Numbered from the stretch's first letter, positions 1-51,488 are shown. The stretch: DNA of 64,000 bases from Chthoniobacterales bacterium (GCA_039930045.1 JBDSQB010000002.1:262286-326285); one strand, 5' to 3'. Made by a program: numbers and translations. The notes: generated from the letters alone by a model not told the origin.

Positions 1-11
1 AACTTCGTCCC

Positions 12-3000
12 ATGCCCGCAGTTAGTAAGAAACCTTCCGCACCCGTCCCCAAGGCCGCACCACTGGCCGACTCCATCCGCATCCGCAATGTTCGTCAGAA
101 CAATCTGAAGGGCATTGATCTCGACCTGCCGCTAAATCAGTTGATTGTCGTCACCGGTCCCAGCGGATCGGGCAAGTCCTCGCTCGCTTTCGACACGATC
201 TACGCCGAGGGCCAGCGACGTTACGTGGAGACGTTCTCGCCTTACACGCGGCAATTTCTCGACCGCATGGACAAGCCGCGGGTGGACGAGATTCTCGGCA
301 TCCCGCCCGCCATCGCCATCGAGCAGAAAAACGGCGTTCGCACCACGCGCTCGACCGTCGGGACGATGACGGAGATTAACGATTACCTGAAACTTCTCGT
401 GCCACGGCTGGCGCGGGCGTTTTGTCCGATTTGCGACCGGGAAATTCGACCCGAGACAGCACAGTCGATCGTCACTCAACTCCAAAAAGAGCACGCCGGT
501 GAGACGATTCTCATCACCTTTGGCGTGCCCGTTCCGCCGAACACTAAGCCGGCGGATTTCTTCAAATTTCTCACCGCCCAAGGCTATCTCCGCATCTGGC
601 GCGATGGAAAAATGCATCGCACCGACGAGGCGCCGACGCTCACCGCCCTGCACGGCGTCGTGGAAGTCGTCCAGGACCGGATAACAGTGCAACCCGACTC
701 ATTTTCCCGGCTCACCGAGGCGGCGGAAACGGCGCTCAATTTCGGCAAGGGAAAGATTACCGTCACGAATCTCAAGACGCTGGAATCGCAGCCTTTCTCC
801 AAAGGCTGGCACTGCGCGCATTGCGACGAAACGATCCGCCCGCCATCGCCGGGACTTTTTTCCTTTAACAATCCGCTCGGCGCGTGCCCGACCTGCCGTG
901 GTTTTGGCCGCACGATTGGGCTCGATCTCGACCGTGCGCTGCCCGACAAATCGCTGAGCATCGCCGAGGGCGTGGTGAAGCCGTTCCAGAGCGGACAATC
1001 CAAGGAATGCCAGTCCGATCTGATGCGCCATGCCCAGCGCAATCTGGTCGATGTTTATTGTCCGTTTGCCGAGCTTTCCCCTGCCGATCAAAAATGGGTG
1101 CTCCAAGGCGAGGGAGGCATCGATGTTAGCAACGAGGAACTCTGGAAAAACGACCAATGGTATGGCGTGAAAGGTTTCTTCGACTGGATGGAGGCGCGCA
1201 CTTACAAAATGCACATCCGCGTTTTCCTCAGCCGCTACCGCGCCTACACCGAGTGCCCGGATTGTCATGGTGGCCGCTTCCAACCCGCGACGCTGAACTA
1301 TCAATTGGTCGATCAAGCGGGGAAACGCTATACGCTTCCGCAGCTGAGCCGAACGCCGGTGAGACAACTGGCAACTTTGTTAGAAACCTTCCTGGTTCCA
1401 GCGGCGGACAAGACGGGCACGATGATTCGTGGCGAAGTCGTTTCTCGCCTGCGCTATCTCGACGAGGTCGGCCTCGGCTACCTCGATCTCGACCGCAGCA
1501 CGCGCACGCTTTCCGGCGGCGAAGTCGAGCGCGTCACGCTCACCACTTGTCTCGGAGCGTCGTTGGTTAACACCTTGTTCGTCATGGACGAGCCGACGGT
1601 AGGGCTGCATCCGCGCGATGTTAGCAAACTGATAGGAGTCATGCAGCAGTTGCGCAACAAGGGCAACACTTTGTTAGTCGTCGAACACGAGGAGGCGGTC
1701 ATCCGCTCTGCCGACTATCTGATCGACATCGGCCCAGGTCGCGGCAACGACGGAGGCGAGCTGGTCTTCGCTGGAAACGCATCGGAGTTGCATAGTAATC
1801 AGCGCTCGCTCACCGCTGCGTATTTGTATGGCCGCAAATCCATTCCAGTTCCAGTCAAACGTCGCAAAGCCAAAGCCTGGCTCACCGTCAAAGGTGCCAC
1901 CGAAAACAACCTGCGCGACATCGACGTCAAGTTTCCGCTGGGACTTTTCACCTGCGTCACTGGCGTTTCCGGCAGTGGAAAATCCAGTCTCGTACACACG
2001 GTTCTCCACGAAAATCTGCTTCGCATCAAAGGCCTGCCAACCGGAGAAGTTATTGGGCATTGCCGCAGCATATTAGGAGGCCACGCCGTTGATCAGGTCG
2101 TGATGGTCGACCAGTCGCCGCTCGCCCGCAGCCCGCGCTCCACGCCAGCCGTTTACTTGGGAGTCTTCGACGAGTTGCGCAAACAATTTGCCGACAGTTC
2201 CGCGGCGCAGGCGGCGGGATTTACCGCCAGCACGTTCTCCTTCAACAGCGGAACTGGGCGCTGCCAGCGCTGCAATGGACTCGGCTATGAAAAGGTTGAG
2301 ATGCAGTTTCTCAGCGATCTTTTCATCCGTTGCTCCGAGTGCGAAGGGAAACGCTACCAGCCGCATGTTCTAGCCATTCAACTCCACGGAAAATCGATTC
2401 ACGATGTCCTAGAACTAACTGTTAGTGAAGCCATCGCGTTTTTCACCGAACATGGAGCTAACAAAAAGATTTTGGAACCTTTCCGCACCTTGGAAAGCGT
2501 CGGCCTCGGCTACCTGAAACTCGGCCAGCCGGTCAACGTCCTGAGTGGCGGAGAAAGCCAGCGACTCAAGTTAGTCGGACATCTCGTAGAGAAGTCTAAC
2601 CTGCACCAGAAGTCGCTCCTCATTTTCGACGAACCGACCACTGGACTTCATTTCGATGATGTCGCGCTGTTGTTGAACGTCTTCCAAAAGCTAGTCGATG
2701 CAGGCAACACTCTCATTGTCATCGAGCACAATCTCGAGGTCATCAAAAGCGCCGATCACGTCATTGACCTCGGCCCCGAAGCTGGCGAGGAGGGAGGCCT
2801 GATCATCGCCGAGGGTACTCCAGAGCAGGTATCTAACATTAAGGAATCCCACACCGGACGCTACCTGCGCGGCGTGCTCCAGGGGACTCGCGTCAGGGAG
2901 GAAATCATTCCCCGTCCGGTCGGTTTCAAGGGGCAATCCTCCGGCATCACCATCCACGGCGCGCGCGAACATAACCTCAAAAACTTCACCGTTACCCTGC

Positions 3001-5531
3001 CACGCGAGAAGATGATCACGATCACCGGCCTGAGCGGATCTGGAAAATCCACGCTCGCCTTCGACATTCTTTTTGCCGAGGGCCAGCGCCGCTTTCTCGA
3101 CAGCATGTCGCCCTACGCGCGGCAATTTGTCGAGCAGTTGGAGAAGCCCGATGTCGATCACATCGAGGGGCTTCCTCCTAGCGTCGCCATCGAGCAGCGC
3201 ATCACGCGCGGCGGCGGAAAATCGACGGTTGCGACCGTCACCGAGGTCTATCATTTCCTGCGCCTAATGTTTGCCAAACTCGGCACGCAGTATTGCCCGA
3301 AATGTCAGATTCCTGTCGAGGGACAGACCATTCAGCGCATCATCGAGCAAGTGGAAAAGGTCGTCGGAAAGAAGACCTCCTATTTGCTGGCCACGGTCGT
3401 GAAAGCTAGAAAAGGCTTCCACACCGATGTGGCCGCGGCGGCAGCCAAGGACGGTTTCGAGACATTGTTAGTCGATGGGAAATTTATTCCTTCTGCTAAC
3501 TTCGAGAAGCTGGAACGTTTTAAGGAACACACCATCGACATCGTGCTGGCCGACCTGTCGCAAGTGAAGAAGGCTGATGTCAGACCTCTGGTGGAACGCG
3601 CACTGCAAATCGGCAAGCGCACCGCCAAAATCTATGTCGCCGGACAGGAGACAATTCTCAGCACGGAGATGACCTGCCCGAAATGTTCGCGCGCCTTCGA
3701 GGAACTGGACCCGCGTTTGTTTTCCTTTAACTCGCCTCACGGCTGGTGCACGACTTGCAATGGATTCGGCGAGATTTTTGAGGCCGCCATTAACCTAGAC
3801 GAAGACGCCTCCATGCTGGAGCGCGAGCTTGCCGAAGAAAAAGCCCACGAGTCAATGGAGGAAGGGGAATCGAAGCCGTGTCACGTCTGCAAAGGGGCGC
3901 GTCTGAATGAAGTGGCGCGCAATGTTAGATTGAATGATCTAACCATCGACCGGCTGACCCACGGCAGCGTGCGCGATTCGTTGGAGACCGTGCAAAAGCT
4001 AACCTTCCAGAAACAACAGCTAGTCATCTCGGAGGACATCATTCCAGAGATCACGCAGCGGCTGAAGTTCATGGAAAACGTCGGCCTGAGCTATCTGGCG
4101 CTGGATCGTTCCGCGAAGACTTTGAGCGGAGGCGAGAGCCAGCGCATCCGGCTCGCGGCGCAGTTAGGTTCCAATCTGCGCGGCGTGCTTTACGTTCTTG
4201 ATGAGCCGACCATCGGATTGCATCCGCGCGACAACGACGCGTTGTTAGACACTCTCGAAGCGCTCAAAGCCAAGGGCAACACGCTTGTGATTGTCGAGCA
4301 CGACGAGGAAACCATGCGCCGCTCCGACATCATTGTCGATCTCGGCCCCGGTGCCGGCATGAACGGCGGCGAAGTCGTCGCCCAGGGGACTTTGAGTCAA
4401 ATCAAAGCCAACAAAAATTCTCAGACCGGACGTTACCTGAAGAAGCCGATGCAGCATCCGTTGTTAGGTTCGCGCCGTTCCCTCGCCAAAGTGGACTGGC
4501 TGCAAATCATCAAGGCCGATGTTAACAATCTAAAAAACATCACGGTCAAATTCCCCATCGGTCGGCTCACAGCCATCACGGGAATTTCCGGTTCTGGTAA
4601 AAGCACCCTGATGCGCGGCGCACTGCGGCCGGCCGTGGAGGAGGCGCTCAATACCAAAGCCAAAAAAACGGGCAAGTATCCCGATCTCAAAGGTACAGAA
4701 TTTCTCGAAGCCATCTACGAGGTTGATCAGTCGCCGATCGGCAAATCCTCGCGCTCGATTCCGGCGACTTATATCAAGGTCTTCGACGAAATCCGGCTGC
4801 ATTTTGCCGCGTTGCCGATGTCGCGGATGCGAGGTTATACTAACAGTCGTTTCTCCTTCAACACCGAGGGCGGACGCTGCGAAACCTGCGCGGGTCAGGG
4901 CGTAATCAAGATGGAAATGAACTTCCTGCCGCCAAGCTATGTGCCGTGCGAGGATTGCGGCGAAACCCGCTATAACGCCCAGACTCGCGAGGTGGAATAC
5001 AATGGTAAAAACATCGGCGACGTAATGAACATGACCATCGCGCAGGCGGCGGAATTTTTCTCCGCCAGCCCAAAAATACATCGCACGCTGAACTTGTTAG
5101 TCGAGACGGGCTTGGGTTATCTCAAGCTCGGCCAGCCAAGCCCGACTCTGAGCGGCGGCGAGGCGCAACGACTCAAACTCGTCTCCGAATTGCGCCTCGG
5201 AGCGACGCGCGATTATACTAACAAAGTCCGCAAGATGAAGTCCGCCAAGAGCACGCTTTACCTACTGGAAGAACCGACGATCGGACTGCACATGGCCGAC
5301 GTGGAAATGTTGCTTGGCGTCATCCAGCGGCTCGTCGATGTGGGTCACACGGTGATTGTCATTGAACACAACTTAAACGTCATCGCTGAAGCCGATTACG
5401 TGGTGGACATCGGACCGGAAGCCGGATCTGCGGGCGGCGAGCTAGTCGCCTGTGGCACGCCAGAGGAAATCTGCACGAGCAAGACGAGCCGCATCGCGCC
5501 CTATCTCAAACGGACTCTGGCAGGCAAATAA
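12..5531 (+). CDS. Tandem-duplicated UvrA-like ABC ATPase: two complete UvrA-type halves in one 1839-aa chain, four nucleotide-binding domains
   Basis: Uninterrupted ORF with ATG at 12. Four Walker A motifs: GPSGSGKSS near nt 150, GVSGSGKSS near 1965, GLSGSGKST near 3030, GISGSGKST near 4585. Four LSGGE ABC signatures, repeated AEGQRR and CxxC zinc-module motifs. Each half ends with an HTGRYL/QTGRYL-type UvrA C-terminus. Confidence 0.9.
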   Translation: MPAVSKKPSAPVPKAAPLADSIRIRNVRQNNLKGIDLDLPLNQLIVVTGPSGSGKSSLAFDTIYAEGQRRYVETFSPYTRQFLDRMDKPRVDEILGIPPAIAIEQKNGVRTTRSTVGTMTEINDYLKLLVPRLARAFCPICDREIRPETAQSIVTQLQKEHAGETILITFGVPVPPNTKPADFFKFLTAQGYLRIWRDGKMHRTDEAPTLTALHGVVEVVQDRITVQPDSFSRLTEAAETALNFGKGKITVTNLKTLESQPFSKGWHCAHCDETIRPPSPGLFSFNNPLGACPTCRGFGRTIGLDLDRALPDKSLSIAEGVVKPFQSGQSKECQSDLMRHAQRNLVDVYCPFAELSPADQKWVLQGEGGIDVSNEELWKNDQWYGVKGFFDWMEARTYKMHIRVFLSRYRAYTECPDCHGGRFQPATLNYQLVDQAGKRYTLPQLSRTPVRQLATLLETFLVPAADKTGTMIRGEVVSRLRYLDEVGLGYLDLDRSTRTLSGGEVERVTLTTCLGASLVNTLFVMDEPTVGLHPRDVSKLIGVMQQLRNKGNTLLVVEHEEAVIRSADYLIDIGPGRGNDGGELVFAGNASELHSNQRSLTAAYLYGRKSIPVPVKRRKAKAWLTVKGATENNLRDIDVKFPLGLFTCVTGVSGSGKSSLVHTVLHENLLRIKGLPTGEVIGHCRSILGGHAVDQVVMVDQSPLARSPRSTPAVYLGVFDELRKQFADSSAAQAAGFTASTFSFNSGTGRCQRCNGLGYEKVEMQFLSDLFIRCSECEGKRYQPHVLAIQLHGKSIHDVLELTVSEAIAFFTEHGANKKILEPFRTLESVGLGYLKLGQPVNVLSGGESQRLKLVGHLVEKSNLHQKSLLIFDEPTTGLHFDDVALLLNVFQKLVDAGNTLIVIEHNLEVIKSADHVIDLGPEAGEEGGLIIAEGTPEQVSNIKESHTGRYLRGVLQGTRVREEIIPRPVGFKGQSSGITIHGAREHNLKNFTVTLPREKMITITGLSGSGKSTLAFDILFAEGQRRFLDSMSPYARQFVEQLEKPDVDHIEGLPPSVAIEQRITRGGGKSTVATVTEVYHFLRLMFAKLGTQYCPKCQIPVEGQTIQRIIEQVEKVVGKKTSYLLATVVKARKGFHTDVAAAAAKDGFETLLVDGKFIPSANFEKLERFKEHTIDIVLADLSQVKKADVRPLVERALQIGKRTAKIYVAGQETILSTEMTCPKCSRAFEELDPRLFSFNSPHGWCTTCNGFGEIFEAAINLDEDASMLERELAEEKAHESMEEGESKPCHVCKGARLNEVARNVRLNDLTIDRLTHGSVRDSLETVQKLTFQKQQLVISEDIIPEITQRLKFMENVGLSYLALDRSAKTLSGGESQRIRLAAQLGSNLRGVLYVLDEPTIGLHPRDNDALLDTLEALKAKGNTLVIVEHDEETMRRSDIIVDLGPGAGMNGGEVVAQGTLSQIKANKNSQTGRYLKKPMQHPLLGSRRSLAKVDWLQIIKADVNNLKNITVKFPIGRLTAITGISGSGKSTLMRGALRPAVEEALNTKAKKTGKYPDLKGTEFLEAIYEVDQSPIGKSSRSIPATYIKVFDEIRLHFAALPMSRMRGYTNSRFSFNTEGGRCETCAGQGVIKMEMNFLPPSYVPCEDCGETRYNAQTREVEYNGKNIGDVMNMTIAQAAEFFSASPKIHRTLNLLVETGLGYLKLGQPSPTLSGGEAQRLKLVSELRLGATRDYTNKVRKMKSAKSTLYLLEEPTIGLHMADVEMLLGVIQRLVDVGHTVIVIEHNLNVIAEADYVVDIGPEAGSAGGELVACGTPEEICTSKTSRIAPYLKRTLAGK

Positions 5532-5607: not shown

Positions 5608-7242
5608 GTGTCCTTCCCGGCTTTTCATCCCGAAAAAAATGCAGGCAGTTCCGTGCAACAAGCGGCTCTGCTAAAAATCCTTCTCGAGAACAGCCCAGAC
5701 TGTATCTATTTCAAAGATCTGGAGCGTCGCTTCATTGCCGTCAGCCGTGGCTTGGTGCAAAGACTGGGCCAGCAAAGCGCCAGCGACCTGCTTGGCAAGA
5801 CCGACTCTGATTTTTTTGGTCAAGAACACGCCCTGGCCACGGCACTGGACGAGCAGGAAATCGTCGAAACGGGCCATCGCATTGTCGGCAAACTGGAGCG
5901 TGAGGACCTTCCCGACGGGACGGTCCGATGGGTGGTCTCCACAAAGCTGCCGATGCGTGATGAAAGCGGCAGGATCATCGGGACATTTGGCATTTCCCGC
6001 GATTTCACTGCCGAAAAGGAATGGGAGGATCGGCTCAATTCTGAGCGGTCGCTGCTACGGAGCGTCATCGAACACATTCCCGATCCGATCTATGTGAAGG
6101 ATCTCGCCGGCGTGTATGTCCTCGACAACGGATCGCACCGGTTGTTTTTGGGGCGTCATCAAGAAGAGGAAATTGTAGGGAAAACTTCCCACGATTTTTT
6201 TCCCAAGGAGCAGGCATTGAAATTTGAAGGTGATGACCAGCGAACGCTCGAAAGCGGTATTCCGCTGATCAATCGCGAGGAAATCGTCATCCGTTCCGAT
6301 GGAAGTCGCACCTGGTTTTTGACCACCAAAGTTCCGGTGAAGGGCACTCAGAAAAGCCCTGAGCTTCTGGTTTGCATCGGCCGCAATGTCACACAGCAAA
6401 AGCTAGCCGAGGAACGCCTTCTCCAGACCAACGCGGAACTCAGCTCGACCGTAGAAAAACTCAAAGAGGCCCATCAACAACTGCGCGACGTGCAGATGCA
6501 ACTGGTGGAAGCGGAGAAATTAAAATCCGTCGGACGTTTGGCGGCAGGCGTGGCCCATGAGGTTAAAAATCCGCTCGCTGTCCTTCATTTGGGAGTGGAA
6601 TTACTACGGCAGACCGTTCCCGCGACCGACGAAGAAAGCGGGGCCGTGCTGGATGAAATGACGAACGCGATTGCCCGCGCAGAGACGGTGGTCCGTGGGT
6701 TGTTGGATTTTTCCGCGCCACGCAAACTCCAGCAGGAGGCAGCGGATTTTAACGAGGTCGTGCGCCATTCCCTGCAATTTGTGAGAGGCGAGCTGCGAAC
6801 GCATCACGTCAAAGTCGCGCTGGAGCTTTCCACAGATCTGCCGTTGATCGAGATGGATCGGCAGAAAATGGAGCAAGTCCTCATCAATCTGTTAACCAAT
6901 GCCGCCCACGCCATGGCGCTTAAGGGTGGCACGCTGACGATTCGCACCCGGCGCGAACAACTCACCGGGGTCGGCGGGAATGTGGGACACGCCCTCAGCG
7001 AAAACTTCCGCATCGGCGAGTGGCTGTTAATTACTGAGATCGAAGACACGGGAACGGGGATTCCAGCGGATAAGCTGGAGCACATTTTTCAACCCTTTTT
7101 CACCACCAAAGCCACTGGCAGCGGCACCGGCCTCGGCCTGAGCGTCTCTAAAACCATCATCGCCCTTCACGGGGGCATAATCTCCGTTAAAAACGTCCCC
7201 GGCAGCGGCGCTTGTTTCAGTATTTTTCTTCCCACCCCATAA
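5608..7242 (+). CDS. PAS-PAS sensor histidine kinase
   Basis: Two PAS-like blocks (DCIYFKDL.., DPIYVKDL..). H-box AAGVAHEVKNPLAV. HATPase N/G boxes (LINLLTNAAHAM, DTGTGIP, GSGTGLGLS). GTG start, so the start position is uncertain. Confidence 0.85.
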   Translation: MSFPAFHPEKNAGSSVQQAALLKILLENSPDCIYFKDLERRFIAVSRGLVQRLGQQSASDLLGKTDSDFFGQEHALATALDEQEIVETGHRIVGKLEREDLPDGTVRWVVSTKLPMRDESGRIIGTFGISRDFTAEKEWEDRLNSERSLLRSVIEHIPDPIYVKDLAGVYVLDNGSHRLFLGRHQEEEIVGKTSHDFFPKEQALKFEGDDQRTLESGIPLINREEIVIRSDGSRTWFLTTKVPVKGTQKSPELLVCIGRNVTQQKLAEERLLQTNAELSSTVEKLKEAHQQLRDVQMQLVEAEKLKSVGRLAAGVAHEVKNPLAVLHLGVELLRQTVPATDEESGAVLDEMTNAIARAETVVRGLLDFSAPRKLQQEAADFNEVVRHSLQFVRGELRTHHVKVALELSTDLPLIEMDRQKMEQVLINLLTNAAHAMALKGGTLTIRTRREQLTGVGGNVGHALSENFRIGEWLLITEIEDTGTGIPADKLEHIFQPFFTTKATGSGTGLGLSVSKTIIALHGGIISVKNVPGSGACFSIFLPTP

Positions 7243-14151: not shown

Positions 14152-14233
14152 GCCTTAATACTAGAAGCGCTAAGATTCAGGTGACGGGATTTTTGATTTG
14201 AGTTAGATTCGACTTCAACAACCCGGAGGAATT

Positions 14234-16756: not shown

Positions 16757-17953
16757 ATGAACATCCACGAGTACCAAGCCCGCGAACTTTTTGCGAAATT
16801 TAATGTCGCCACACAACCCGGCAGCGTCGCCTCGACTCCAGCGGAAGCCGAACAGATCGCCGCAAAACTGGGTGGCAAGATCGTCGTCAAATCGCAGATT
16901 CACGCTGGAGGACGCGGCAAGGGCGTTTTCAAAAACGGCTTCAAGGGCGGCGTCCATTTGTGTGCAACTCCCGTGGAAGCCGGGGAGCTCGCCGGAAAAA
17001 TGCTCGGCCAAGTGCTGGTGACGCATCAGACCGGACCCGAAGGCAAGGAAGTGAGCAAAGTCTTTGTCGGCGCCGCGGTAAACATCCAGCGCGAGTTGTA
17101 TTTCGCCATTTTGCAGGACCGCGCGACGAGCGGTTACACGATCATCGCGAGCACCGAAGGCGGCGTGAATATCGAGGACGTGGCCGAGCACACGCCGGAG
17201 AAAATTCACCACGAACCCGTCCACCCCACACTTGGGTTGCAGTCGTATCAAAGTCGCAAGCTGGCACAAATCCTGGGTCTCGACGGCAAGCTGATGAATC
17301 AGGCGGTGAAGCTTTTTGGCAATCTCTACAAGCTCTTCATCGAGTGCGATTGCTCGATGGTGGAAGTCAACCCGCTGGTCGTCACGGACAGGGGCGAATT
17401 GCTCGCGCTCGATGCGAAATTTGGCTTCGACGACAACGCTCTCTATCGCCATCCCGACATCCTCGCGATGCGCGACAAGACCGAGGAAGACCCGCGCGAA
17501 GTCGCCGCATCGGAGTTCCAATTGAATTACATCGGTCTCGACGGAAACATCGCCTGTCTGGTCAACGGAGCCGGGCTCGCCATGGCGACGATGGACATTA
17601 TTCAATACGCCGGCGGCAACCCCGCGAACTTCCTCGACGTCGGCGGCGGCGCGACCAAGGAGCAAGTCGCAGCAGCCTTCCGAATCATCCTGGCCGACCC
17701 CAAAGTCGAAGGCATTCTCGTGAATATTTTTGGCGGCATCATGGATTGCGACATCATCGCCCACGGGATTTTGGCCGCGGCTGCGGAGACGGGTTTGAGC
17801 ATTCCCCTCGTCGTCCGGCTCGAAGGCAACAACGTCGCCGCTGGCAAAGCCACGCTGGCTTCCAGCGATCTGAAAGTTATCGGAGGCGACAACATTCTCG
17901 ACGCCGCCCAGAAGATCGTCGCAGCCGTCAGCGACGCTAAAAAAGCCGCCTAA
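16757..17953 (+). CDS. sucC: Succinyl-CoA synthetase beta subunit
   Basis: [13 protein letters not shown]-terminus, ATP-grasp region, [10 protein letters not shown] motif. Confidence 0.93.
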
Positions 17954-17961
17954 TTTCTCCC

Positions 17962-18858
17962 ATGTCCATTCTTGTCACGCCCACTACTAAGATTCTCATC
18001 CAAGGCATCACTGGCAGCTTTGGCGCGCGCCATGCCCAGCTTTCGCTCGACTACGGCAGCCAGGTTGTCGCCGGGGTTACGCCTGGAAAAGGCGGCCAGT
18101 TGTTTGCCAATGTCGTGCCAATTTTCGACACGGTCTCGCAAGCGGTGAGAGAAACCGGAGCCACTGTTTCGGCGATTTTTGTTCCGCCACCGTTCGCTGC
18201 CGACGCCATTTTGGAAGGCGTCGATGCCGGTCTCGATCTCGTGATTTGCATCACGGAAGGCATTCCGGTGAATGACATGGTGAAGGTGAAACACGCCATG
18301 AAAGGCAGCAAAACCCGTCTGATCGGCCCGAATTGCCCCGGCATCGTCACGCCTGGCACGGGGGAGAATTCCCATGGCGGCTGCCGCATCGGCATCGCAC
18401 CCGGTTACATTCATAAAAAGGGCAACGTCGGTGTCGTTTCGCGCTCGGGCACGCTCACTTACGAGGCTGTTTTCCAACTCACCACGCGCGGTTATGGCCA
18501 ATCGACTTGCGTTGGTATCGGCGGCGATCCGGTCAATGGCACGAGCCATTTGGACATTCTGAAAATGTTCAACGACGACCCCGAGACCGAGGCGATCATC
18601 ATGATCGGCGAAATCGGTGGCACCGCTGAGGAAGAAGCCGCTGAATGGGCGGGTCAGTATTGCAAGAAGCCGATCGCGGGCTTCATTGCCGGAGCCACCG
18701 CGCCTCCCGGACGCCGGATGGGTCACGCCGGGGCCATCGTCAGCGGAGGCAAAGGCACCGCCGCCGCCAAAATTGCCGCTCTCGAAGCCGCTGGCATCGC
18801 CGTTTCCCCGACGCCTGCCGGAATGGCCGACACGCTGCTGAAACACTGGAAGCGCTAA
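17962..18858 (+). CDS. sucD: Succinyl-CoA synthetase alpha subunit
   Basis: [16 protein letters not shown], and GHAGAI with the phosphohistidine. Starts 8 nt after sucC. Confidence 0.93.
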
Positions 18859-18895
18859 CATTTACATTTCAACCAAACTCAACTCTTAATAACCC

Positions 18896-20683: not shown

Positions 20684-22672
20684 ATGAGCGCAAAAGCCAT
20701 GACATCTGACAAAAACATAACATTACAGCCGGCAGGCCCGACGGATGCTACCTATCGCAGCATCGTGGAACATGCAATCGAAGGAATTTTCCAGACCACT
20801 CCCGATGGCCATTATTTGCTCGCAAACCCCGCTCTGGCATCGATTTACGGATATTCTTCGGTCGCCGAATTGTGCAGCGGAGTGCGGGAGATTGCCCGCC
20901 AGCTTTACGTCGAACCCACCCGGCGCAATGAGTTTCTCCAATTGATGAATGAGCAGGACGCGGTCTGGGGCTTCGAGTCTCCGATTCATCGCAAAGATGG
21001 GAGTGTGATTTGGATTTCCGAGAATGTGCGCGTGATTCGCGACGAAAATGGCGATGTTTCCTACTACGAGGGCACGGTCGAGGACATCTCGAATCGCAAG
21101 CACGCCGAGGAGCAGTTGCGCCGCGCCAAGGAAGCCGCCGAGGAAGCCAGCCGGTCGAAAAGCCAGTTTCTCGCAAACATGAGCCACGAGCTGCGCACAC
21201 CGCTCAACGCCATTATCGGCTACAGCGAATTGCTCCACGAGGAAGCCGAGGACATGGGCGAGAAAAGTTTCTGCGACGATCTGAAAAAAATCGAGAAAGC
21301 CGGCAAGCACCTGCTCGATCTCATTAATGGCGTGCTCGACATTGCCAAGATCGAGGCTGGCAAAATGGAAGTCCACGTGGAGGAATTCGACATCGCCGAA
21401 ATGCTCCAAGACGTCGGCAGCACGGTCACCCCGATCATTGAGAAAAAAGGCAACCGTCTCGTCATCGAAACCGCGCCCGGCTTGGGAAAAATGCAGACCG
21501 ACCTGACCAAGGTCCGCCAGTCGCTTTTCAATCTGCTCGGCAATGCGGGCAAATTCACCGAAAACGGCCTCGTCACTCTCTCGGCCCGCCGGCAGTCAGA
21601 CTCAGACAAAGACTGGATCATTCTCCAGGTGCGCGACACCGGCATCGGCATGACCAATGAACAAGCGTCGCGAATTTTTGAGGCATTCACCCAGGCTGAT
21701 TCGTCCACGACCCGGAAATTTGGCGGCACCGGGCTGGGGCTCACCATTACCCGCGAGTTCTGCCGCTTAATCGGCGGCGAGGCGACCGTCACGAGCACAC
21801 TGAAACTCGGCTCGACTTTCATGATCAAGCTGCCCGCGATTTTTTCCGCCGAGGATCAGCAGCCGGCCTCCATCACGTCATTCCAGATTGAGCCGGAAAT
21901 GGAAAACTCCGAGCAGCCGCTCGTGCTGCTGATCGACGACGATCTCACCATTCACGATCTGGTGAAACGCTTCCTGCACAAGGAAGGCTTCCGCACCATC
22001 TGCACGCAAAACGGCGCGGACGGACTCGACCTGGCCCGGCGCCTGCAACCGTCGGTCATTGTTCTCGACGTGATGATGCCGACGATGGACGGATGGTCCG
22101 TTCTTTCGCGGCTGAAAAGCGACCCGGTTTTATCTAACATCCCGGTCGTCATGCTCACCATGGTGGACGACAAGGCGATGGGCTACACTCTGGGCGTGGA
22201 CGATTACATGCTCAAGCCCATCGAGCGCGTGGATTTCGTGGGTGTGCTGCGCAAGTTTTGCGATCAGAACAACCCCGGAACGGTGTTAGTCGTCGAGGAT
22301 GATGACACCTCGCGCGAGCTGGTGCGCGACATGTTAGAAAAAGACCACTACACCGTCATCGAAGCTCGCAACGGCCTGGAAGGTCTCGAGCGACTCACGG
22401 GCGTGGTGCCGACCATGATCCTGCTCGATCTCATGATGCCCGAGATGGATGGCTTTGAATTTGCCGCTGCCGTCCGCAAAATCCCCAAGCTAACCAACGT
22501 CCCCATCGTGGTGATGACGGCAAAGGACATCACCTCGCAAGACCGCACCCGCCTCGAGGGCCATGTCGCGCGCGTCATGCAAAAAGGCCTCTATGGCCGC
22601 GACGATTTGCTTGCCGAAATCCGCTCACATATTTTGCGGGCGACTTCCAATCCAATGGTCGCCGCCGCCTGA
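20684..22672 (+). CDS. Hybrid sensor histidine kinase: PAS, HisKA, HATPase, REC, REC
   Basis: H-box MSHELRTPLNAIIGYSELL. HATPase motifs (NLLGNAGKFT, DTGIGM, GGTGLGL). Two receiver domains (LLIDDD..VLDVMMPTMDG and LVVEDDD..LLDLMMPEMDG). Confidence 0.88.
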   Translation: MSAKAMTSDKNITLQPAGPTDATYRSIVEHAIEGIFQTTPDGHYLLANPALASIYGYSSVAELCSGVREIARQLYVEPTRRNEFLQLMNEQDAVWGFESPIHRKDGSVIWISENVRVIRDENGDVSYYEGTVEDISNRKHAEEQLRRAKEAAEEASRSKSQFLANMSHELRTPLNAIIGYSELLHEEAEDMGEKSFCDDLKKIEKAGKHLLDLINGVLDIAKIEAGKMEVHVEEFDIAEMLQDVGSTVTPIIEKKGNRLVIETAPGLGKMQTDLTKVRQSLFNLLGNAGKFTENGLVTLSARRQSDSDKDWIILQVRDTGIGMTNEQASRIFEAFTQADSSTTRKFGGTGLGLTITREFCRLIGGEATVTSTLKLGSTFMIKLPAIFSAEDQQPASITSFQIEPEMENSEQPLVLLIDDDLTIHDLVKRFLHKEGFRTICTQNGADGLDLARRLQPSVIVLDVMMPTMDGWSVLSRLKSDPVLSNIPVVMLTMVDDKAMGYTLGVDDYMLKPIERVDFVGVLRKFCDQNNPGTVLVVEDDDTSRELVRDMLEKDHYTVIEARNGLEGLERLTGVVPTMILLDLMMPEMDGFEFAAAVRKIPKLTNVPIVVMTAKDITSQDRTRLEGHVARVMQKGLYGRDDLLAEIRSHILRATSNPMVAAA

Positions 22673-22690
22673 ACCTAACATTATTCTCTC

Positions 22691-23068
22691 ATGCCCAAGC
22701 TATTGTTAGTAGAAGACAACGAAATGAACCGAGACATGCTCCAGCGCCGTCTGCAGCGCCGGGGATTTGAAGTCCTCATCGCCGTCGATGGCGGCGAGGG
22801 AGTCGCCCTGGCCGTCGAGCAGACTCCCGACCTCATCATTATGGACATGAGCCTGCCCGTCCTTAATGGCTGGGAGGCCACCCGCCAGATCAAGAGCCTG
22901 CCTGCGGCAAAACATATCCCGGTACTAGCATTGACCGCCCACGCCATGGCCGGCGAACGCGACCGCGCCCTGGACGCGGGTTGTGACGACTACGACACCA
23001 AGCCGGTTGATTTTACCCGCCTAACTGGAAAGATAGACAAGCTCCTGCAAGGAATCGCCGCCTCCTAA
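22691..23068 (+). CDS. Single-domain response regulator (CheY-like)
   Basis: KLLLVEDNEMNRD, IIMDMSLPVLNGWE, DYDTKP. Confidence 0.88.
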   Translation: MPKLLLVEDNEMNRDMLQRRLQRRGFEVLIAVDGGEGVALAVEQTPDLIIMDMSLPVLNGWEATRQIKSLPAAKHIPVLALTAHAMAGERDRALDAGCDDYDTKPVDFTRLTGKIDKLLQGIAAS

Positions 23069-23069
23069 C

Positions 23070-25496
23070 ATGACCGCCCAACTCGATCTGCCGACACGAC
23101 CCGATTTGCAACATGAGTTGCACGATCTGCGCACACCGCTGAATCAGATCATCGGTTTCAGTGAAATGCTTCAGGAGATCGCGCAGGAGGAAGGCCGCCA
23201 CGATCTGCTCGATGGCCTCGCCACCGTCTGCTCGGCAGGCATCGAACTCACTTCGCTCCTCGCCGACACCCGCCTCATTTCGCTAACTAACAACGACGAC
23301 CAGGAATACTGGCCGCTCGTCGATGCGGTGCGCTCTCCGATCAGCCGCGTGTTAGGTTTCGCCGACCTCATTCTCGCCGAACCGCCCGAGGCGCATCTTT
23401 CCAGCTATAACGAGGACATCGAAAAAATCCGCACTGCCGCCGCCATGTTCTTCGTCAAGGCACGGGCGAGTCGCATTGTTATCCGGATCGAGGCCGCGCG
23501 CGACTGGACCGCAGGCACGCCACGCCAGACCACTAGCGCCAGCCCGGAAAGCGTGGGCCGCGTTCTCATCGTTGATGACGAAAATCTCAACCGTGAGATT
23601 CTCTGCCGCCGCTTGTTGCGTGAGGGCTACAGTTCGCTAGGAGTCGCCAGCGGACATGCCGCTCTGGAGGCTTTGCGGAAGGAGAAGTTCGACATCATTT
23701 TGTTAGACATCATGATGCCCGGAATCGGCGGCATCGAGGTCTTGCAAACTCTCAAGCAGGACGAGACCCTGCGCCATTTGCCCGTCCTCATGCTTTCCGC
23801 TCTGTCCGACGTGGATCGCGTCGCGCGCTGCGTCGAGTTAGGCGCGGATGACTATCTGCCCAAGCCTGTGAATGCGATCTTACTCCGTGCGCGCCTCGGT
23901 GCCTGCATGGAAAAGAAACGCCTGCGCGATCACGAGCAAGCCAGCTTGCGCGAATTGGACTCCGAAAAAGAACTTCTCAGCGTCACGCTGCAATCGCTGG
24001 TCGACGCCGTCGTCACCACCGATGCGGAAGGCCGCATCGTTCTCTTTAACAATGGCGCGACAGTCCTCACAGGCCGCTCCGCCAACACTGCGCGCGGGCA
24101 GTTTTTCGCCGACGTCTTCCCGATTTTTGACCGAACTAACAATCAGCCCGCGGCAGACATTGCACGCGAGGCATTGCAACTTCGCGCCGTCGTGGACACA
24201 CCGTCCGGCCACACAATGATCACGCCGCTCGGGGAGCGGATCATGGCCGCCCACGCCGCTCCGATCCAGGGCCACGATGGCGGCATCAAAGGCACGGTCG
24301 TCGTCATTCGCGACGTCACGGAAAAAGAAAAAATCGCCGAGGAAGTCCTGCGCTCCAGCAAGCTGGAATCCATCGGCGTACTAGCTGGCGGACTCGCCCA
24401 CGACTTTAATAACATGCTCACCGCCGTCATCGGCAATCTCTCCCTGCTGCGTCACGGCGTCGATCCCTCGCCCGACATCATGCATCGCCTCGACGAAGCC
24501 GAGGAAGGCGCGCTGCGAGCCCGCGATCTCGCGCAATATCTCCTAACCTTCGCCGAGGGCGGCGCGCCGCTGAAGAAAGTAGTCGAGCCTGCCGCGCTGC
24601 TTCGCGAGACCACTGAATTCGTCGTTCGCGGCTCGCGGGTCGATTGCGATTTTGAGCTGCCCGACGACCTCTGGAAAGTGGAGGCCGACCCCGGCCAGTT
24701 CACCCAAGCCGTCTCGAATGTCGTGATGAATGCCGCGCAAGCCATGCCCGAGGGCGGCACGATTTTCCTCTCCGCGGAGAACATCATGATCGAGGAAGAC
24801 AGCGATCTAACCTTGCCTGGCGGGGCCTACGTTTCCATCTCCATTTCCGACATGGGAGTGGGCATTCCGGCAGAACATCTGCCGCGCATTTACGATCCAT
24901 TTTTCACCACGAGAAACCAGGCGCGCGGACTCGGTCTGGCCGCGACCTATTCCATTATTCATCGCCACGGCGGCTTGATCGATGTCGAGTCCACGCCCGG
25001 TTACGGCACAAAAGTTCACCTGCTCCTGCCTGCGGTGGAAGTGGCTTCGGCCCCTGAACCATCGGAACACATTTCCACTCCTGGGCAGCCTGCCGAACCT
25101 CTCTCCGGCCAGCGTCTGCAACGCGTGCTCGTGATGGATGACGAGGCTTCCATTCGCGAAGTTTGCGCCGACTTGCTCAAGCTCCTCGACTACGAAGTCG
25201 TCACCACCAGCGACGGGGCCGAGGCGCTCGCCGTCTATCATCAGGCGCAACAAAGCGGTACTCCATTCGACCTCATCATCACCGACCTCACCGTCCCCGG
25301 CGGCATGGGAGGGGCCGAGGCTATGCGTCGTCTGCGCGAGAGTGGCTCGAAGGTACGCGCCATCGTTTCCAGCGGCTACTCGAATGGACCCGTCATGAGC
25401 CATCCCGCCGAATATGGGTTCCAGGGCGTGCTGCCCAAACCGTATCGTCTGCACGACCTCGAAGCCGTCCTGCAAAAGGTCGCCGCCGCTGGCTGA
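23070..25496 (+). CDS. Multidomain hybrid kinase: N-terminal ATPase-less H-box module, REC, PAS, HisKA, HATPase, REC
   Basis: N-terminal HELHDLRTPLNQIIGFSEML with no following ATPase. REC (VLIVDDENLN..LLDIMMPGIGG). PAS region. Second H-box GLAHDFNNMLTAV. HATPase (SDMGVGIP..GLGLA). C-terminal REC (VLVMDDE..ITDLTVPGGMGG). ATG lies 1 nt after the upstream stop. Confidence 0.85.
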   Translation: MTAQLDLPTRPDLQHELHDLRTPLNQIIGFSEMLQEIAQEEGRHDLLDGLATVCSAGIELTSLLADTRLISLTNNDDQEYWPLVDAVRSPISRVLGFADLILAEPPEAHLSSYNEDIEKIRTAAAMFFVKARASRIVIRIEAARDWTAGTPRQTTSASPESVGRVLIVDDENLNREILCRRLLREGYSSLGVASGHAALEALRKEKFDIILLDIMMPGIGGIEVLQTLKQDETLRHLPVLMLSALSDVDRVARCVELGADDYLPKPVNAILLRARLGACMEKKRLRDHEQASLRELDSEKELLSVTLQSLVDAVVTTDAEGRIVLFNNGATVLTGRSANTARGQFFADVFPIFDRTNNQPAADIAREALQLRAVVDTPSGHTMITPLGERIMAAHAAPIQGHDGGIKGTVVVIRDVTEKEKIAEEVLRSSKLESIGVLAGGLAHDFNNMLTAVIGNLSLLRHGVDPSPDIMHRLDEAEEGALRARDLAQYLLTFAEGGAPLKKVVEPAALLRETTEFVVRGSRVDCDFELPDDLWKVEADPGQFTQAVSNVVMNAAQAMPEGGTIFLSAENIMIEEDSDLTLPGGAYVSISISDMGVGIPAEHLPRIYDPFFTTRNQARGLGLAATYSIIHRHGGLIDVESTPGYGTKVHLLLPAVEVASAPEPSEHISTPGQPAEPLSGQRLQRVLVMDDEASIREVCADLLKLLDYEVVTTSDGAEALAVYHQAQQSGTPFDLIITDLTVPGGMGGAEAMRRLRESGSKVRAIVSSGYSNGPVMSHPAEYGFQGVLPKPYRLHDLEAVLQKVAAAG

Positions 25497-25538
25497 AGCC
25501 TTGCGAAACCAGCCGAGCCCGCTTAATTAGGGGCCGCC

Positions 25539-26351
25539 ATGCAGATTTCACTGGAAGACGCCTACACCGATGTCATCGCCAAGGCCCAGCGCGGCCTCGG
25601 CCTGGCCGACAGTCAGCTCGCGGAACAATCCGGAATCGCTCTCGCAGAACTCAAAAATCTCAAGTCCGGCCACGTCGATCCAGCCGTCCTGCAAGCCATC
25701 GCACCCGTGTTGCATTTGAGTTTGAGTGCACTCATCCAGCTCGCGGAGGGAAACTACCAGCCCGATGTTAGTCTGCCCGATGGGCTCGCCGTTTTCAACA
25801 CGCCCTACGAGGATTACACGGTGAATTCCTATCTCGTCTGGGATCCGGCCACACGCGATGCCATCGTCTTCGACACCGGTTCCGACGCCACGGAACTCCT
25901 CCACACCATCGTGTCCAATGGACTCAAAGTCCGCTCTATTTTACTAACCCACACGCACGGCGATCACGTCTTCGACCTGGACCGCGTTGTGGAAAAGACT
26001 GGCGCTCCCGTCTTTACTAACATTCGCGAACCACTGGAAGATGCAGCCCCTTTTTCCGAGGGAGCGACATTCGAATGCGGCTCGCTGCGTATTGGCACTT
26101 TGCTAACCCATGGACACTCCCCGGGCGGCACGACATTTGTCGTTTCTGGTTTGGAGAAACCCATCGCCATCGTCGGGGATTCCCTTTTCGCCGGCTCCAT
26201 GGGCGGATCAACCGCCTGGGAATTGGCGCTGACTAACAATCGCGAAAAGATTCTCACTCTTCCCCCAGAAACCATCATTTGCCCCGGTCACGGCCCGCTC
26301 ACCACAGTCGAGTTCGAGTTGAATCACAATCCCTTCTACGCGCCGCGATGA
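25539..26351 (+). CDS. MBL-fold metallo-hydrolase (glyoxalase II-like) with an N-terminal HTH-like segment
   Basis: THTHGDHV zinc motif, later HGHSPGG and PGHG. The first ~70 aa (LADSQLAEQSGIALAELKNLKSG) look like a Cro/XRE-type helix-turn-helix. Confidence 0.8.
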   Translation: MQISLEDAYTDVIAKAQRGLGLADSQLAEQSGIALAELKNLKSGHVDPAVLQAIAPVLHLSLSALIQLAEGNYQPDVSLPDGLAVFNTPYEDYTVNSYLVWDPATRDAIVFDTGSDATELLHTIVSNGLKVRSILLTHTHGDHVFDLDRVVEKTGAPVFTNIREPLEDAAPFSEGATFECGSLRIGTLLTHGHSPGGTTFVVSGLEKPIAIVGDSLFAGSMGGSTAWELALTNNREKILTLPPETIICPGHGPLTTVEFELNHNPFYAPR

Positions 26352-27439
26352 TCCGCCATCTCTATGTGCACATCCCGTTTTGCCCGAAGGTTTGTCCGTA
26401 TTGTTCCTTCTACAAGGAGGCCTCGGATCGCAACAAGACGCAGCGTTTCCTAGACGCGGTTCTATCCGAGTTAAATGCCGCTCAGAAGACACACCAGCTT
26501 CAACCTGAGACAATCTTTTTCGGCGGCGGCACTCCCACGGCGCTGAGCACACCGCAACTCAGCTATTTGTTGGAAGGTCTCCGCGAGCGGCTAGATATCA
26601 CGCATCTCCACGAATGGACTCTGGAGATGAATCCAGCCACGGTTTCCCTCGAGAAAGCGGCGCGGCTGCGGGAGCTGGGAGTCAATCGCGTGAGCATGGG
26701 CGTGCAGGCCTGGGACGAGGCGACTTTGAAAGCATTGGGCCGCGTCCATTCGGCGGAACAAGCCTTGCGCTCGTATCACATCTTGCGCGAGGCGGGTTTT
26801 TCTAACATCAACCTCGACCTCATCTTTGGCACTCCCGGACAAAGCCAGGAAGTCTGGTTCGACAACTTAAAAAAGACAATCGAGTTAGAACCGAATCACA
26901 TCTCCGCCTACTGTCTAACCTACGAAGAGGACACGGAGTTTTTTCGCCGCTTTCAAAGTGGCGAGTTGCAGCAGGATGAGAACGCCGACGCTGATCTCTA
27001 CGAGGGAAGCATCGCGATGTTAGAAGCCGCTGGCTACGTTCAGTACGAGACCTCGAACTACGCGCGCCCTGGATTCGAGTGTGAGCATAATCTGGCCTAT
27101 TGGTTAGGATACGATTATCTCGGGCTGGGCCCCAGTGCGTTCTCCACGGTCGGCAGTGCGCGCTGGAAAAATCTCCCCGACACCACGGCTTACTGCCAGC
27201 TCATCGAAAGCTGCGGAGAGGCGAAGTCTTTCCATGAATCCGTCACGCCCGAGATTCGTCACAGCGAGCTAGTCGCATTCGGGTTGCGCACGAATCGCGG
27301 CGTTTCGATGTTAGGACTTCCCCTGCCGCAGATCGCGCGCCTAACCGCAGATGGGTTTCTAACTCAAATGGAAGATCGCGTCTTCCTAACCAAACAAGGC
27401 CGGCTCGTCGCCGACAGCGTGGCCGAGCTGCTTATCTAA
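26348..27439 (+). CDS. hemW: Radical SAM family heme chaperone HemW (HemN-like, oxygen-independent coproporphyrinogen oxidase family)
   Basis: HIPFCPKVCPYCSFY CxxxCxxC motif, GGGTP, HemN_C-like tail. ATGA overlap with the upstream gene. Confidence 0.85.
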   Translation: MIRHLYVHIPFCPKVCPYCSFYKEASDRNKTQRFLDAVLSELNAAQKTHQLQPETIFFGGGTPTALSTPQLSYLLEGLRERLDITHLHEWTLEMNPATVSLEKAARLRELGVNRVSMGVQAWDEATLKALGRVHSAEQALRSYHILREAGFSNINLDLIFGTPGQSQEVWFDNLKKTIELEPNHISAYCLTYEEDTEFFRRFQSGELQQDENADADLYEGSIAMLEAAGYVQYETSNYARPGFECEHNLAYWLGYDYLGLGPSAFSTVGSARWKNLPDTTAYCQLIESCGEAKSFHESVTPEIRHSELVAFGLRTNRGVSMLGLPLPQIARLTADGFLTQMEDRVFLTKQGRLVADSVAELLI

Positions 27440-27440
27440 C

Positions 27441-29951: not shown

Positions 29952-29971
29952 GGCAGTGGCGCGGAGCAGAG

Positions 29972-30085
29972 TCTTCGGGAGCGCACGCGTCTCGCGTGTT
30001 CCCTTTTGAGTCCCGCGAAAGGGCCGGTTCTCGCCATCGGACGGGACGTCCGCTGGAACACGCGGGACGCGTGCGCTCCCGGGGA
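29972..30085. repeat. Long near-perfect inverted repeat: ~27-31 bp arms, ~52-nt structured spacer
   Basis: Left arm GGGAGCGCACGCGTCTCGCGTGTTCC (29977-30002) is the reverse complement of the right arm GGAACACGCGGGACGCGTGCGCTCCC (30055-30080) with one mismatch. An inner GTCCCG/CGGGAC stem is present. It lies in the 147-nt gap between the two permease genes. Confidence 0.75.
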
Positions 30086-30098
30086 AAAGATTGTGCTC

Positions 30099-48611: not shown

Positions 48612-51488
<2,877 letters not shown>

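Follow-up and report, generated by a model that had tools for sequence, protein, structure and literature searches.

The window analysed here, a 64-kb stretch from the genome of a Chthoniobacterales bacterium, holds three segments that are crowded with the pentamer GTTAG and its reverse complement CTAAC. The first of these islands lies within a tandem uvrA gene at the beginning of the window. The product of this gene is 100% identical to the 'excinuclease ABC subunit UvrA' of an NCBI metagenome-assembled genome (MAG) of the Chthoniobacterales, and fused double UvrA proteins of this kind are common in Planctomycetes-Verrucomicrobia-Chlamydiae (PVC) bacteria, with orthologues across the group. 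The second island runs from the end of a gene for a hybrid kinase (HK1) to hemW, and the third covers a cluster of sugar-modification genes that is flanked by a gene for a flavin adenine dinucleotide (FAD)-linked oxidase and by a tRNA-Gln gene. The genes that are poor in the motif include housekeeping genes (ClpB, SucCD, GltA, aconitase, LipA and HisF) as well as genes whose function suggests that they are weakly expressed (another sensor kinase, DnaX, MacB and an FAD oxidoreductase). Since both kinds are poor in the word, and since G+C content at third codon positions (GC3) does not separate rich genes from poor ones, expression level and gene class were rejected as causes of the islands.

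For counting, the islands were taken as positions 1-5531, 22134-27440 and 54577-57880 (13.9 kb in all), which leaves a remainder of 50.1 kb. These limits were set post hoc, with the data already seen; the placement simulation described below is independent of them. Gene calls were heuristic, and the wrong strand for SucD and MacB was corrected, with results unchanged. Antisense open reading frames (ORFs) at 17950-18861 and 28725-30185 had misled a GC3-based caller at these two places, where the real genes are SucD (17962-18858, + strand) and a MacB-like gene (28725-29951, - strand); antisense ORFs reach 745 aa in this GC-rich genome, and such miscalls are typical there.

A scripted count found 86 copies of GTTAG or CTAAC in the window. 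The islands, at about 22% of the sequence, hold 65 of them; the other 21 lie in the remainder (0.42 per kb), and about 78% of the window is at a neutral level. The mononucleotide expectation is about 1.5 per kb. The first-pass annotation, made by hand from the sequence, was accurate in these respects: the script matched every coordinate of its 22 copies between 21 and 5222 (13 GTTAG and 9 CTAAC), found positions 26-1124 free of copies as described, and agrees with its estimate of about 0.4 copies per kb outside the islands. Among all strand-symmetrised 5-mers, GTTAG/CTAAC is the most enriched in the islands (65 versus 21, z 12), followed by TGTTA/TAACA and then TTAGT/ACTAA. The control word CTAAA/TTTAG is flat, with 6 copies in the islands versus 23 outside (0.43 versus 0.46 per kb), which is the even spread that the same annotation had reported for CTAAA, and GC content is nearly alike in the two parts (0.56 versus 0.58).

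Synonymous shuffles, in which synonymous codons are permuted inside each gene so that the protein and the gene's codon usage are kept, give far lower counts. In uvrA alone, 22 copies are observed versus 3.45 ± 1.76 in the shuffles (maximum 10, n = 2000), and the nine island genes together have 58 copies versus 10.1 ± 2.9 (z 16.3). Genes outside the islands are at shuffle expectation (14 observed versus 18.8), and the word is therefore neutral there and not avoided. The hexamer TGTTAG/CTAACA departs from the synonymous shuffles of island genes more strongly than any other 4- to 6-mer (34 versus 2.6-2.7, z 19), and over the whole window TGTTAG occurs 43 times versus 7.4 ± 2.5 in dinucleotide-preserving shuffles, a count reached by 0 of 100 shuffles. 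That neither kind of shuffle reproduces the counts upholds the earlier judgement that composition does not account for the signal.

The copies are also clustered beyond random placement over permissive positions, that is, dipeptide contexts able to hold GTTAG or CTAAC without a change in the protein. As many as 28 copies fall within 5.5 kb, whereas the highest such count in 5000 simulated placements averages 12.9 and never exceeds 21, and the coefficient of variation (CV) of the gaps is 1.83 versus a maximum of 1.60 in the simulations. Permissive dipeptides make up 5.2% of codons both in island genes and outside, and occupancy (occupied over permissive positions) is 24.6% in island genes (58 of 236) versus 1.6% elsewhere (13 of 791). 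Since permissive contexts are equally common inside and outside, the enrichment is purely synonymous, and amino-acid composition is ruled out as its cause. The contrast in occupancy between adjacent genes is about 14-fold, and the overall odds ratio of about 18 would correspond to a scaled advantage of roughly 3, i.e., a weak advantage per site. Codon tables and GC3 are nearly the same inside and outside, save for the codons that build the word (CTA threefold, TTA and ACA twofold, ACT 1.8-fold); this similarity, together with the synonymous and dinucleotide shuffles, rules out codon usage or AT-richness as the cause. A general relaxation on TAG or CTAG was rejected as well, as CTAG is fourfold enriched yet stays within codon-usage shuffles.

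The 60 coding copies in the island genes (29 GTTAG and 31 CTAAC on the sense strand) occupy exactly the four codon contexts that avoid an in-frame stop: GTT-AGN (9), nnG-TTA-Gnn (20), CTA-ACN (15) and nCT-AAC (16). The use of both orientations and the independence from reading frame that had been described for uvrA are thus general to the islands. Orientation is 38 versus 48 over the whole window and 13 GTTAG versus 9 CTAAC in uvrA, with a similar balance in relatives. Copies in either orientation and in each of the four stop-free frames mean that the target is double-stranded DNA; symmetry under reverse complementation is predicted by a reader of double-stranded DNA and by no mechanism that acts on RNA or at the ribosome.

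The first-pass annotation had taken the pentamer as the word. Its enrichment stands, but the preferred form is really the hexamer TGTTAG/CTAACA, as the base before GTTAG (position -1) is T in 40 of the 65 island copies; A (13) and G (12) make up the rest, and C never occurs there. At position -2, 48 of the 65 have A or T, and at position +2 just 2 have G, which gives a preferred form of W-T-GTTAG-N-H with a core of 5 bases, graded flanks and roughly 12 bits; CGTTAGG is absent from the window altogether. A preceding G is carried by 83% of the TTAG in the islands. Among one-mismatch variants, GCTAG is 4.7-fold island-enriched and the others at most 2.4-fold, with GTTAA and ATTAG at about twofold. 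CTAG (24 in the islands versus 22 outside) and GCTAG (19 versus 14) are both four to five times denser in the islands. GCTAG is one synonymous step from the motif (nnG-CTA-G); it may be a weaker version of the site or an intermediate on the way between CTN and TTA codons. The two small palindromes that had been pointed out in uvrA both exist, but neighbouring sites show no dyad pattern: with neither an excess of inverted neighbours nor a fixed distance, a palindromic or dyad architecture is ruled out, and the two palindromes are not part of a pattern.

Relatives were sampled as loci of about 12-25 kb, all from metagenome assemblies, and orthologous loci (numbered with the prefix L) were retrieved for all three islands: L081, L084, L085 and L001 for uvrA, L086, L087 and L088 for island 2, and L092, L093 and L094 for island 3. 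In these related Chthoniobacterales, whose synonymous sites have diverged by 30-60%, each of the three islands reappears over the same genes, and its sharp borders are the same as well. The features of the window, including each copy in uvrA and the relatives that have it, are collected in Table 1.

Table 1. Features of the window and the individual copies of the word in uvrA; lower-case letters are bases of the hexamer that adjoin the core.
Feature	Position	Strand	Basis or occurrence
Tandem (fused double) UvrA gene, 1839 aa	12-5531	+	ORF; Pfam UvrA_inter, UvrA_DNA-bind, ABC_tran; host of island 1
Motif-free 5' part of uvrA	26-1124	+	Left island border inside the gene, common to relatives
Island 1 proper, 21 copies in 4.1 kb (5.1/kb), 21 of 81 permissive positions occupied	1125-5222		Scripted count
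GTTAG, GTT-AGT (Val-Ser), isolated	21-25	+	In no relative
tGTTAG, GTT-AGC	1125-1129	+	Also L084, L085
tGTTAG, TTG-TTA-GAA	1379-1383	+	Also L085
tGTTAG, GTT-AGC	1620-1624	+	All five uvrA orthologues
tGTTAG, TTG-TTA-GTC	1673-1677	+	Also L084, L085; CTG-CTC-GTC in relatives without a copy
CTAAC, CTA-ACT (Leu-Thr), half of palindrome CTAAC-T-GTTAG	2415-2419	-	Window only
tGTTAG, GTT-AGT	2421-2425	+	Also L084, L085
CTAACa, GCT-AAC	2458-2462	-	Also L084
GTTAG, AAG-TTA-GTC	2570-2574	+	Window only
CTAAC, TCT-AAC	2596-2600	-	Also L085
CTAACa, TCT-AAC	2833-2837	-	Window only
tGTTAG, TTG-TTA-GTC	3467-3471	+	Also L081, L085
CTAAC, GCT-AAC	3496-3500	-	Also L084, L001
tGTTAG, GTT-AGA with rare Arg codon AGA	3924-3928	+	Window only
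CTAAC, CTA-ACC	3939-3943	-	Also L084, L085, L001
CTAAC, CTA-ACC; Thr here is Arg/Lys in most relatives	3999-4003	-	Window only
GTTAG, CAG-TTA-GGT	4163-4167	+	Also L084, L085
tGTTAG, TTG-TTA-GAC	4244-4248	+	Also L085
tGTTAG, TTG-TTA-GGT; Leu here is Arg in most other relatives	4463-4467	+	Also L085
CTAACa, ACT-AAC	4840-4844	-	Also L084, L085
tGTTAG, TTG-TTA-GTC	5096-5100	+	All five uvrA orthologues
CTAACa, ACT-AAC, final island 1 copy	5218-5222	-	Window only
Island 2, 31 copies: HK1 3' end, response regulator, HK2, metallo-beta-lactamase-fold (MBL) gene, hemW	22134-27440		Count and annotation
Island 3, 12 copies: C-methyltransferase, nucleotidyltransferase, PIG-L deacetylase (+), methyltransferase (-)	54757-57590		Count and annotation
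tRNA-Gln(TTG), just past right border of island 3	57903-57976	-	Annotation

The density over the whole of uvrA is 4.0 per kb (22 copies), and it is unevenly placed within the gene. Over five genomes, just 2 of 63 permissive positions in the first 1.1 kb hold the word, whereas occupancy in the rest of the gene is 26-29% in the window, L084 and L085. As the first 1.1 kb is nearly unoccupied in all five genomes, the left border of island 1 is both intragenic and conserved. The orthologues carry 21 copies in L084 (88% amino acid identity), 23 in L085 (87%), 9 in L081 (91%) and 7 in L001 (82%). Many sites are common to the window, L084 and L085, and only two are common to all five genomes. Nucleotide identity of uvrA to its relatives is 67-89% in each 300-nt window, which indicates that there has been no recent recombination tract. 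The motif-rich alleles do not form one clade either, as the genomes are roughly equidistant and the uvrA of the window is nearest to that of the motif-poor L081.

The 5' end of uvrA also contains, at 89-102, a perfect match (TGTTCGTCAGAACA) to the Verrucomicrobia LexA operator TGTTC-N4-GAACA, and uvrA is a LexA target in Verrucomicrobium spinosum (PMC4951493). This match was rejected as a LexA box: it encodes the conserved peptide NVRQNN and is disrupted by synonymous changes in L081, L084, L085 and L001. The coding sequence thus probably produces it by coincidence.

Around island 2, the gene order citrate synthase, YkuD, HK1, response regulator, HK2, MBL, HemW and FAD oxidoreductase is kept in L086, L087 and L088. 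The right edge of the island lies exactly at the stop codon of hemW, and the FAD oxidoreductase gene (27441-28631), which begins 2 nt further on, has zero copies. In the window, 9 of 24 permissive positions of hemW are occupied and 0 of 16 in the FAD gene; overall, occupancy is 23% in hemW (25 of 109) and 2% in the FAD gene (1 of 50 in three GC-rich genomes). The 3' end of the MBL gene and hemW are dense in all four genomes (the window, L086, L087 and L088) with the same right border, and in L086 this stretch of 1.3 kb holds 13 copies versus six in the other ~20 kb. Over HK1 and HK2, the island is present in some genomes and absent in others. The four genomes are roughly equidistant here, and island genes have diverged from their counterparts in relatives about as much as other genes have. 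Along 20684-28631, the window is nearest to L087 in HK1, HK2 and the FAD gene and nearest to L086 in citrate synthase, MBL and HemW. This switch of nearest relative points to old recombination and suggests a breakpoint near the hemW/FAD border of the island.

Positions 50834-61888 of the window are 100% identical in three independent Logan assemblies of different sequencing runs. As these assemblies span island 3 and both of its borders, an assembly chimera is ruled out. L092, the closest relative found (84-87% nucleotide identity), and L094, a second relative, have island 3 over the same genes, and L093 is without it. Occupancy is 8 of 40 in the window, 6 of 40 in L092 and 9 of 42 in L094, versus 0 of 67 and 0 of 82 in the flanking genes. 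L092 has 13 copies, of which four or five are at positions in common with the 12 of the window, and 9 of the 17 differing sites are one nucleotide apart. When the sites were polarised with L093 and L094, 2 of 8 window-only and 1 of 8 L092-only sites were found in an outgroup, and the sites of L094 are mostly at positions of its own. Synonymous codon identity to L092 is 0.55-0.64 in the four island 3 genes (54577-57878) versus 0.63-0.74 in six flanking genes; around island 2 there is no difference in synonymous divergence between island and flanks.

Since few of the private sites occur in outgroups, most of them were gained after the lineages split. Independent gains at the same loci mean that the pressure is ongoing and tied to the locus, and that the islands reflect neither decay of a richer ancestor nor import. 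These comparisons show that synonymous sites keep being gained, so that a double-stranded DNA word stays dense over sharp-bordered segments that are common to several species. As to whether the sites are conserved at synonymous positions in orthologues, a check that the first-pass annotation had proposed, the loci and their density are kept but the individual sites turn over through ordinary point changes.

Other motif-dense stretches were seen in the relatives: L085:21000-24500 over glycoside hydrolases, L088:13600-17300 over an M48 peptidase, an ABC transporter and a solute-binding protein, and L084:10300-18200, a long run in a low-GC genome. Loci rich in the word are therefore more numerous than the three of the window, and in part they differ from genome to genome. 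Most other PVC loci have 0-0.4 GTTAG per kb. The window also contains an exact 15-mer, ATTTGAGTTAGATTC, that occurs twice in intergenic DNA (14196-14210 and 40403-40417, + strand). Both copies directly follow terminator-like sequence, judged by eye (a T-run at both and a GC hairpin with T-run at 40403), and one of them is 15 nt upstream of a cytidine-deaminase-family gene at 40432. Variants are found at 27355 (-) and 9277 (+), with copies of two to three mismatches elsewhere. This element may be a promoter or regulatory element that contains the word by chance.

A longer form of the word is found in a sister clade. In five Chthoniobacterales MAGs whose uvrA is 60-64% identical to that of the window (L017, L039, L028, L006 and L032), nearly every GTTAG lies inside the 9-mer TCGTTAGGC/GCCTAACGA. 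There are 25 exact copies of TCGTTAGGC in L017:1-25514 versus about 0.2 expected, a density of about 1 per kb, and no other 8-mer is as abundant in L017 or in L039 (L039:1-14439). It occurs about equally in all four classes of frame and orientation (25, 24, 20 and 18), and 15 of 102 copies fall outside the heuristic gene calls, a mild intergenic excess. The gaps between copies are more even than random (CV 0.65-0.75), and the sites turn over at synonymous positions, as those of the word do in the clade of the window. On these sequence properties, TCGTTAGGC looks like a DNA uptake sequence. The window's clade excludes at position -1 exactly the C that the word of the sister clade has, and the shared core GTTAG suggests a family of related readers that differ by clade in specificity and deployment. 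No description was found in the literature searched of either word, of GTTAG/CTAAC methylation motifs or of uptake sequences in Verrucomicrobia. TCGTTAGGC contains GTTAGGC, which fits the core-site consensus of integrons (GTTRRRY, with the inverse core RYYYAAC, here GCCTAAC), a match that may be coincidence. In a Thermoguttaceae MAG (L072:1-16033), another 8-mer, TGTAACAG/CTGTTACA, occurs 10 times in 16 kb, about 24 times the mononucleotide expectation; it may be a lineage-specific iterated word or an effect of codon usage.

What might maintain such islands? The reading that we favour, tentatively and at somewhat under an even chance, is that a sequence-specific DNA-binding protein recognises them as arrays of weak sites. 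The word would be a low-affinity site for a protein that binds double-stranded DNA cooperatively, most plausibly a nucleoid-associated or regulatory protein; a lone site would be worth nothing, and only a dense array would be functional. Bound arrays might damp or gate expression of the genes that they cover, or they might organise the chromosome locally. Cooperative reading of arrays would explain why density is kept and position is not, would account for flanks graded in the manner of a binding-energy landscape, and would make each locus rich or poor as a whole, in an all-or-none state that is inherited. Borders sharper than kb-scale recombination tracts would also favour a DNA-binding protein. 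Clustered sites for a DNA-binding or DNA-modifying activity had been among the explanations listed by the first-pass annotation, and this one survives, the enrichment being equal for the two orientations, frame-independent, synonymous in its placement and found at the same loci in several species.

Several observations weigh against such arrays. No binding protein, methyltransferase or other reader was identified, and family annotation found none encoded in the window. The covered genes (UvrA, two hybrid kinases, an MBL-fold protein, HemW and sugar-modification enzymes) are without obvious common function or regulation, and the sensor kinase gene at 5608-7242 and DnaX at 41558-43330 have zero copies. 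Borders fall inside genes, namely in HK1 at 22134, at about 1.1 kb in uvrA and, in L086, in the final 260 nt of the MBL gene, and coverage of HK1 and HK2 varies by genome; the unit is thus not simply the gene. Neighbouring sites have no preferred spacing or orientation (179 direct versus 149 inverted pairs), where a dimeric factor might have left a trace. The even, genome-wide spacing in the sister clade looks more like that of an uptake sequence than that of sites for a regulator. Finally, the evidence base is 64 kb of one genome and short samples of its relatives, with island limits set post hoc.

The main alternative, though unlikely on balance, is a molecular drive like that of uptake sequences. 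The word would be the signal of a DNA-uptake or recombination machinery, and density-dependent reading of its 5-6 bases, by which further sites would pay off only in places that are already rich in them, would make the islands self-sustaining. The TCGTTAGGC of the sister clade has every sequence-level hallmark of an uptake sequence (density, orientations, frames, even spacing and turnover), and clade dialects around a shared core parallel the dialects of DNA uptake sequences (DUS) in Neisseriaceae (PMC3630211). Recombination gives rise to DUS, and conversion fragments contain them in excess (PMC2397512); the switch of nearest relative along island 2 shows that old recombination has occurred. 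However, known uptake sequences are evenly spread, whereas the word in the window is strongly clustered, with a gap CV of 1.7-1.8, and its borders are conserved and far sharper than recombination tracts. At the hemW/FAD border, occupancy falls from 23% to 2% across 2 nt, yet an advantage at the level of the fragment ought to reach sites immediately beyond the border to the same degree. Self-recognition would also have little information to work with in five to six bases, DnaX, another genome-maintenance gene, is without copies, and annotation of the genes in the 64-kb window found no competence genes.

Rather improbable is a locally targeted bias of mutation or repair, whereby near-matches would be converted to GTTAG in certain segments by methyltransferase-tied repair of the very-short-patch kind or by templated patch repair. 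Such a process would fit the weak pressure per site and its restriction to synonymous positions, the 2- to 5-fold halo of enrichment among one-mismatch neighbours, the single-nucleotide differences that mostly separate close relatives and the somewhat higher synonymous divergence of the island 3 genes (codon identity 0.55-0.64 versus 0.63-0.74 in the flanks), but in island 2 synonymous divergence is no higher than in the flanks. Moreover, the gains come from many neighbours (CTGAC, CCAAC, GTGAG, GTTGG, CTAAT and GTAAG) and from no single type of mismatch, the expected source words are not depleted, with GTTAA and ATTAG instead enriched about twofold, and no known process is limited to the same segments of 1-5 kb in several species, with borders between adjacent operon-like genes.

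Recombination tracts from a GTTAG-rich donor lineage, possibly old and partly ameliorated, had also been suggested at first, and we now consider them very improbable. Intragenic borders such as that at 22134 in HK1, the differing extent of the island over HK1 and HK2, the longer motif-rich stretches of the low-GC relatives L084 and L087 and a mild phylogenetic mosaicism could all be left by such tracts. Yet codon usage, GC3 and divergence are the same for island and non-island genes, no segment of uvrA is more than 89% identical to any sampled relative, and none of the sampled genomes is uniformly rich at the 4-8 copies per kb that a donor would require. The same loci are islands in roughly equidistant genomes, and private sites are mostly gains after the split, where import followed by decay would give the opposite. 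A horizontally acquired island was rejected on similar grounds, as codon usage and GC3 are typical, the genes and their synteny are kept in all sampled relatives and divergence is like that of the flanks.

Causes at the level of translation, for which there had been two proposals, were rejected as scarcely credible: a bldA-like gate of rare TTA and CTA codons could draw on the 2- to 3-fold higher frequency of these codons in island genes, but only 35 of the 60 coding copies involve a Leu codon, the other 25 having none, TTA shows no rise apart from the motif (1.6% of Leu codons in island genes versus 2.5% elsewhere), and shuffles that preserve codon usage fall short of the counts; and selection for stops in alternative or antisense frames could draw on the TAG on one strand and TAA on the other that each copy introduces, and on the short antisense ORFs (as first reported, at most 222 aa over uvrA versus up to 745 aa elsewhere, a by-product of the motif), but off-frame TAA and TAG in total are at shuffle expectation (z -2.0 to +2.7) and, as elsewhere in the genome, depleted once those embedded in the motif are removed, off-frame TGA on the sense strand falls short of expectation (z -5.3), enrichment on the sense strand is equal for the word and for its reverse complement, and neither the G before TTAG (83%) nor the T before that G is explained.

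A broader possibility, doubtful as yet, is that the two words belong to an undescribed DNA-word system of the Chthoniobacterales with clade dialects, in which TCGTTAGGC would be deployed genome-wide in the manner of an uptake sequence and TGTTAG, as a shortened dialect, in dense, all-or-none, heritable arrays over a fixed set of gene bodies, which would amount to a new type of mark, written in the sequence, on bacterial chromatin or to a density-dependent signal of self-recognition. If so, TCGTTAGGC would be the first uptake signal outside the Proteobacteria, and self-recognising natural transformation would extend past two proteobacterial families. The TGTTAG arrays themselves mean that selection or drive acts on the density of a word over defined chromosomal segments, in abundant uncultured soil bacteria. 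Over-represented short words can reveal a DNA-reading machine before the machine is known, and Chi, KOPS, uptake sequences and Dam sites are all visible in this way. The TGTTAG arrays and TCGTTAGGC are concrete bait for finding the reader, and the loci that flip between rich and poor from species to species are a natural experiment on what the arrays do.

Among known DNA words, Chi and KOPS are likewise short, lineage-specific and over-represented, but they are strongly co-oriented with replication, whereas the word described here occurs in both orientations side by side (13 versus 9 in uvrA). HIP1, the highly iterated palindrome GCGATCGC of cyanobacteria, is a palindromic octamer found genome-wide. 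Like the word of the window, it is hyper-abundant in coding DNA, independent of frame and specific to a lineage; it differs in being palindromic and genome-wide, whereas the word here is asymmetric and, in this clade, clustered. A restriction-modification site is discrete and all-or-none, and usually it is avoided or neutral in its host; the flanks here are graded, and the word is neutral outside the islands. The Verrucomicrobia LexA operator has TGTT in common with the word, but it is a 14-bp dyad in the promoters of SOS genes, whereas the word has AG after TGTT, shows no dyad partner at a fixed distance and lies in gene bodies, among them those of genes with no relation to SOS.

The DUS of Neisseriaceae and the uptake signal sequences (USS) of Pasteurellaceae occur in hundreds to thousands of copies, at about 1 per kb, in competent hosts with sequence-biased uptake and a receptor such as ComP. 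They resemble the word of the window in their use of both orientations, all frames and permissive, mostly synonymous positions, as well as in turnover and dialects, and the TCGTTAGGC of the sister clade matches them further in length, density of about 1 per kb and even spacing. They are, however, evenly spread over the core genome, whereas the word of the window is confined to sharp islands with conserved borders, and they are specific words of 9-12 bases, as against a core of 5 bases with graded flanks here and a 9-mer in the sister clade (for background on DUS and USS, see PMC2397512, PMC3630211 and PMC2817400).

The closest parallel is with the GATC clusters inside the coding sequences of a set of Escherichia coli genes, conserved in Salmonella, which Henaut and Riva proposed to form a 'GATC regulated network' (PMC493266). 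In both cases, a short word in double-stranded DNA is clustered in certain coding sequences, well above its density elsewhere, and the clusters are conserved in orthologues. GATC is a 4-base palindrome with a methyltransferase, Dam, and the readers SeqA and MutH, whereas the word described here is asymmetric, has 5-6 bases and is set in graded flanks. The regulatory role of the GATC clusters is itself a proposal, while for the word in the Chthoniobacterales the independent gain of sites in several lineages has been shown directly.

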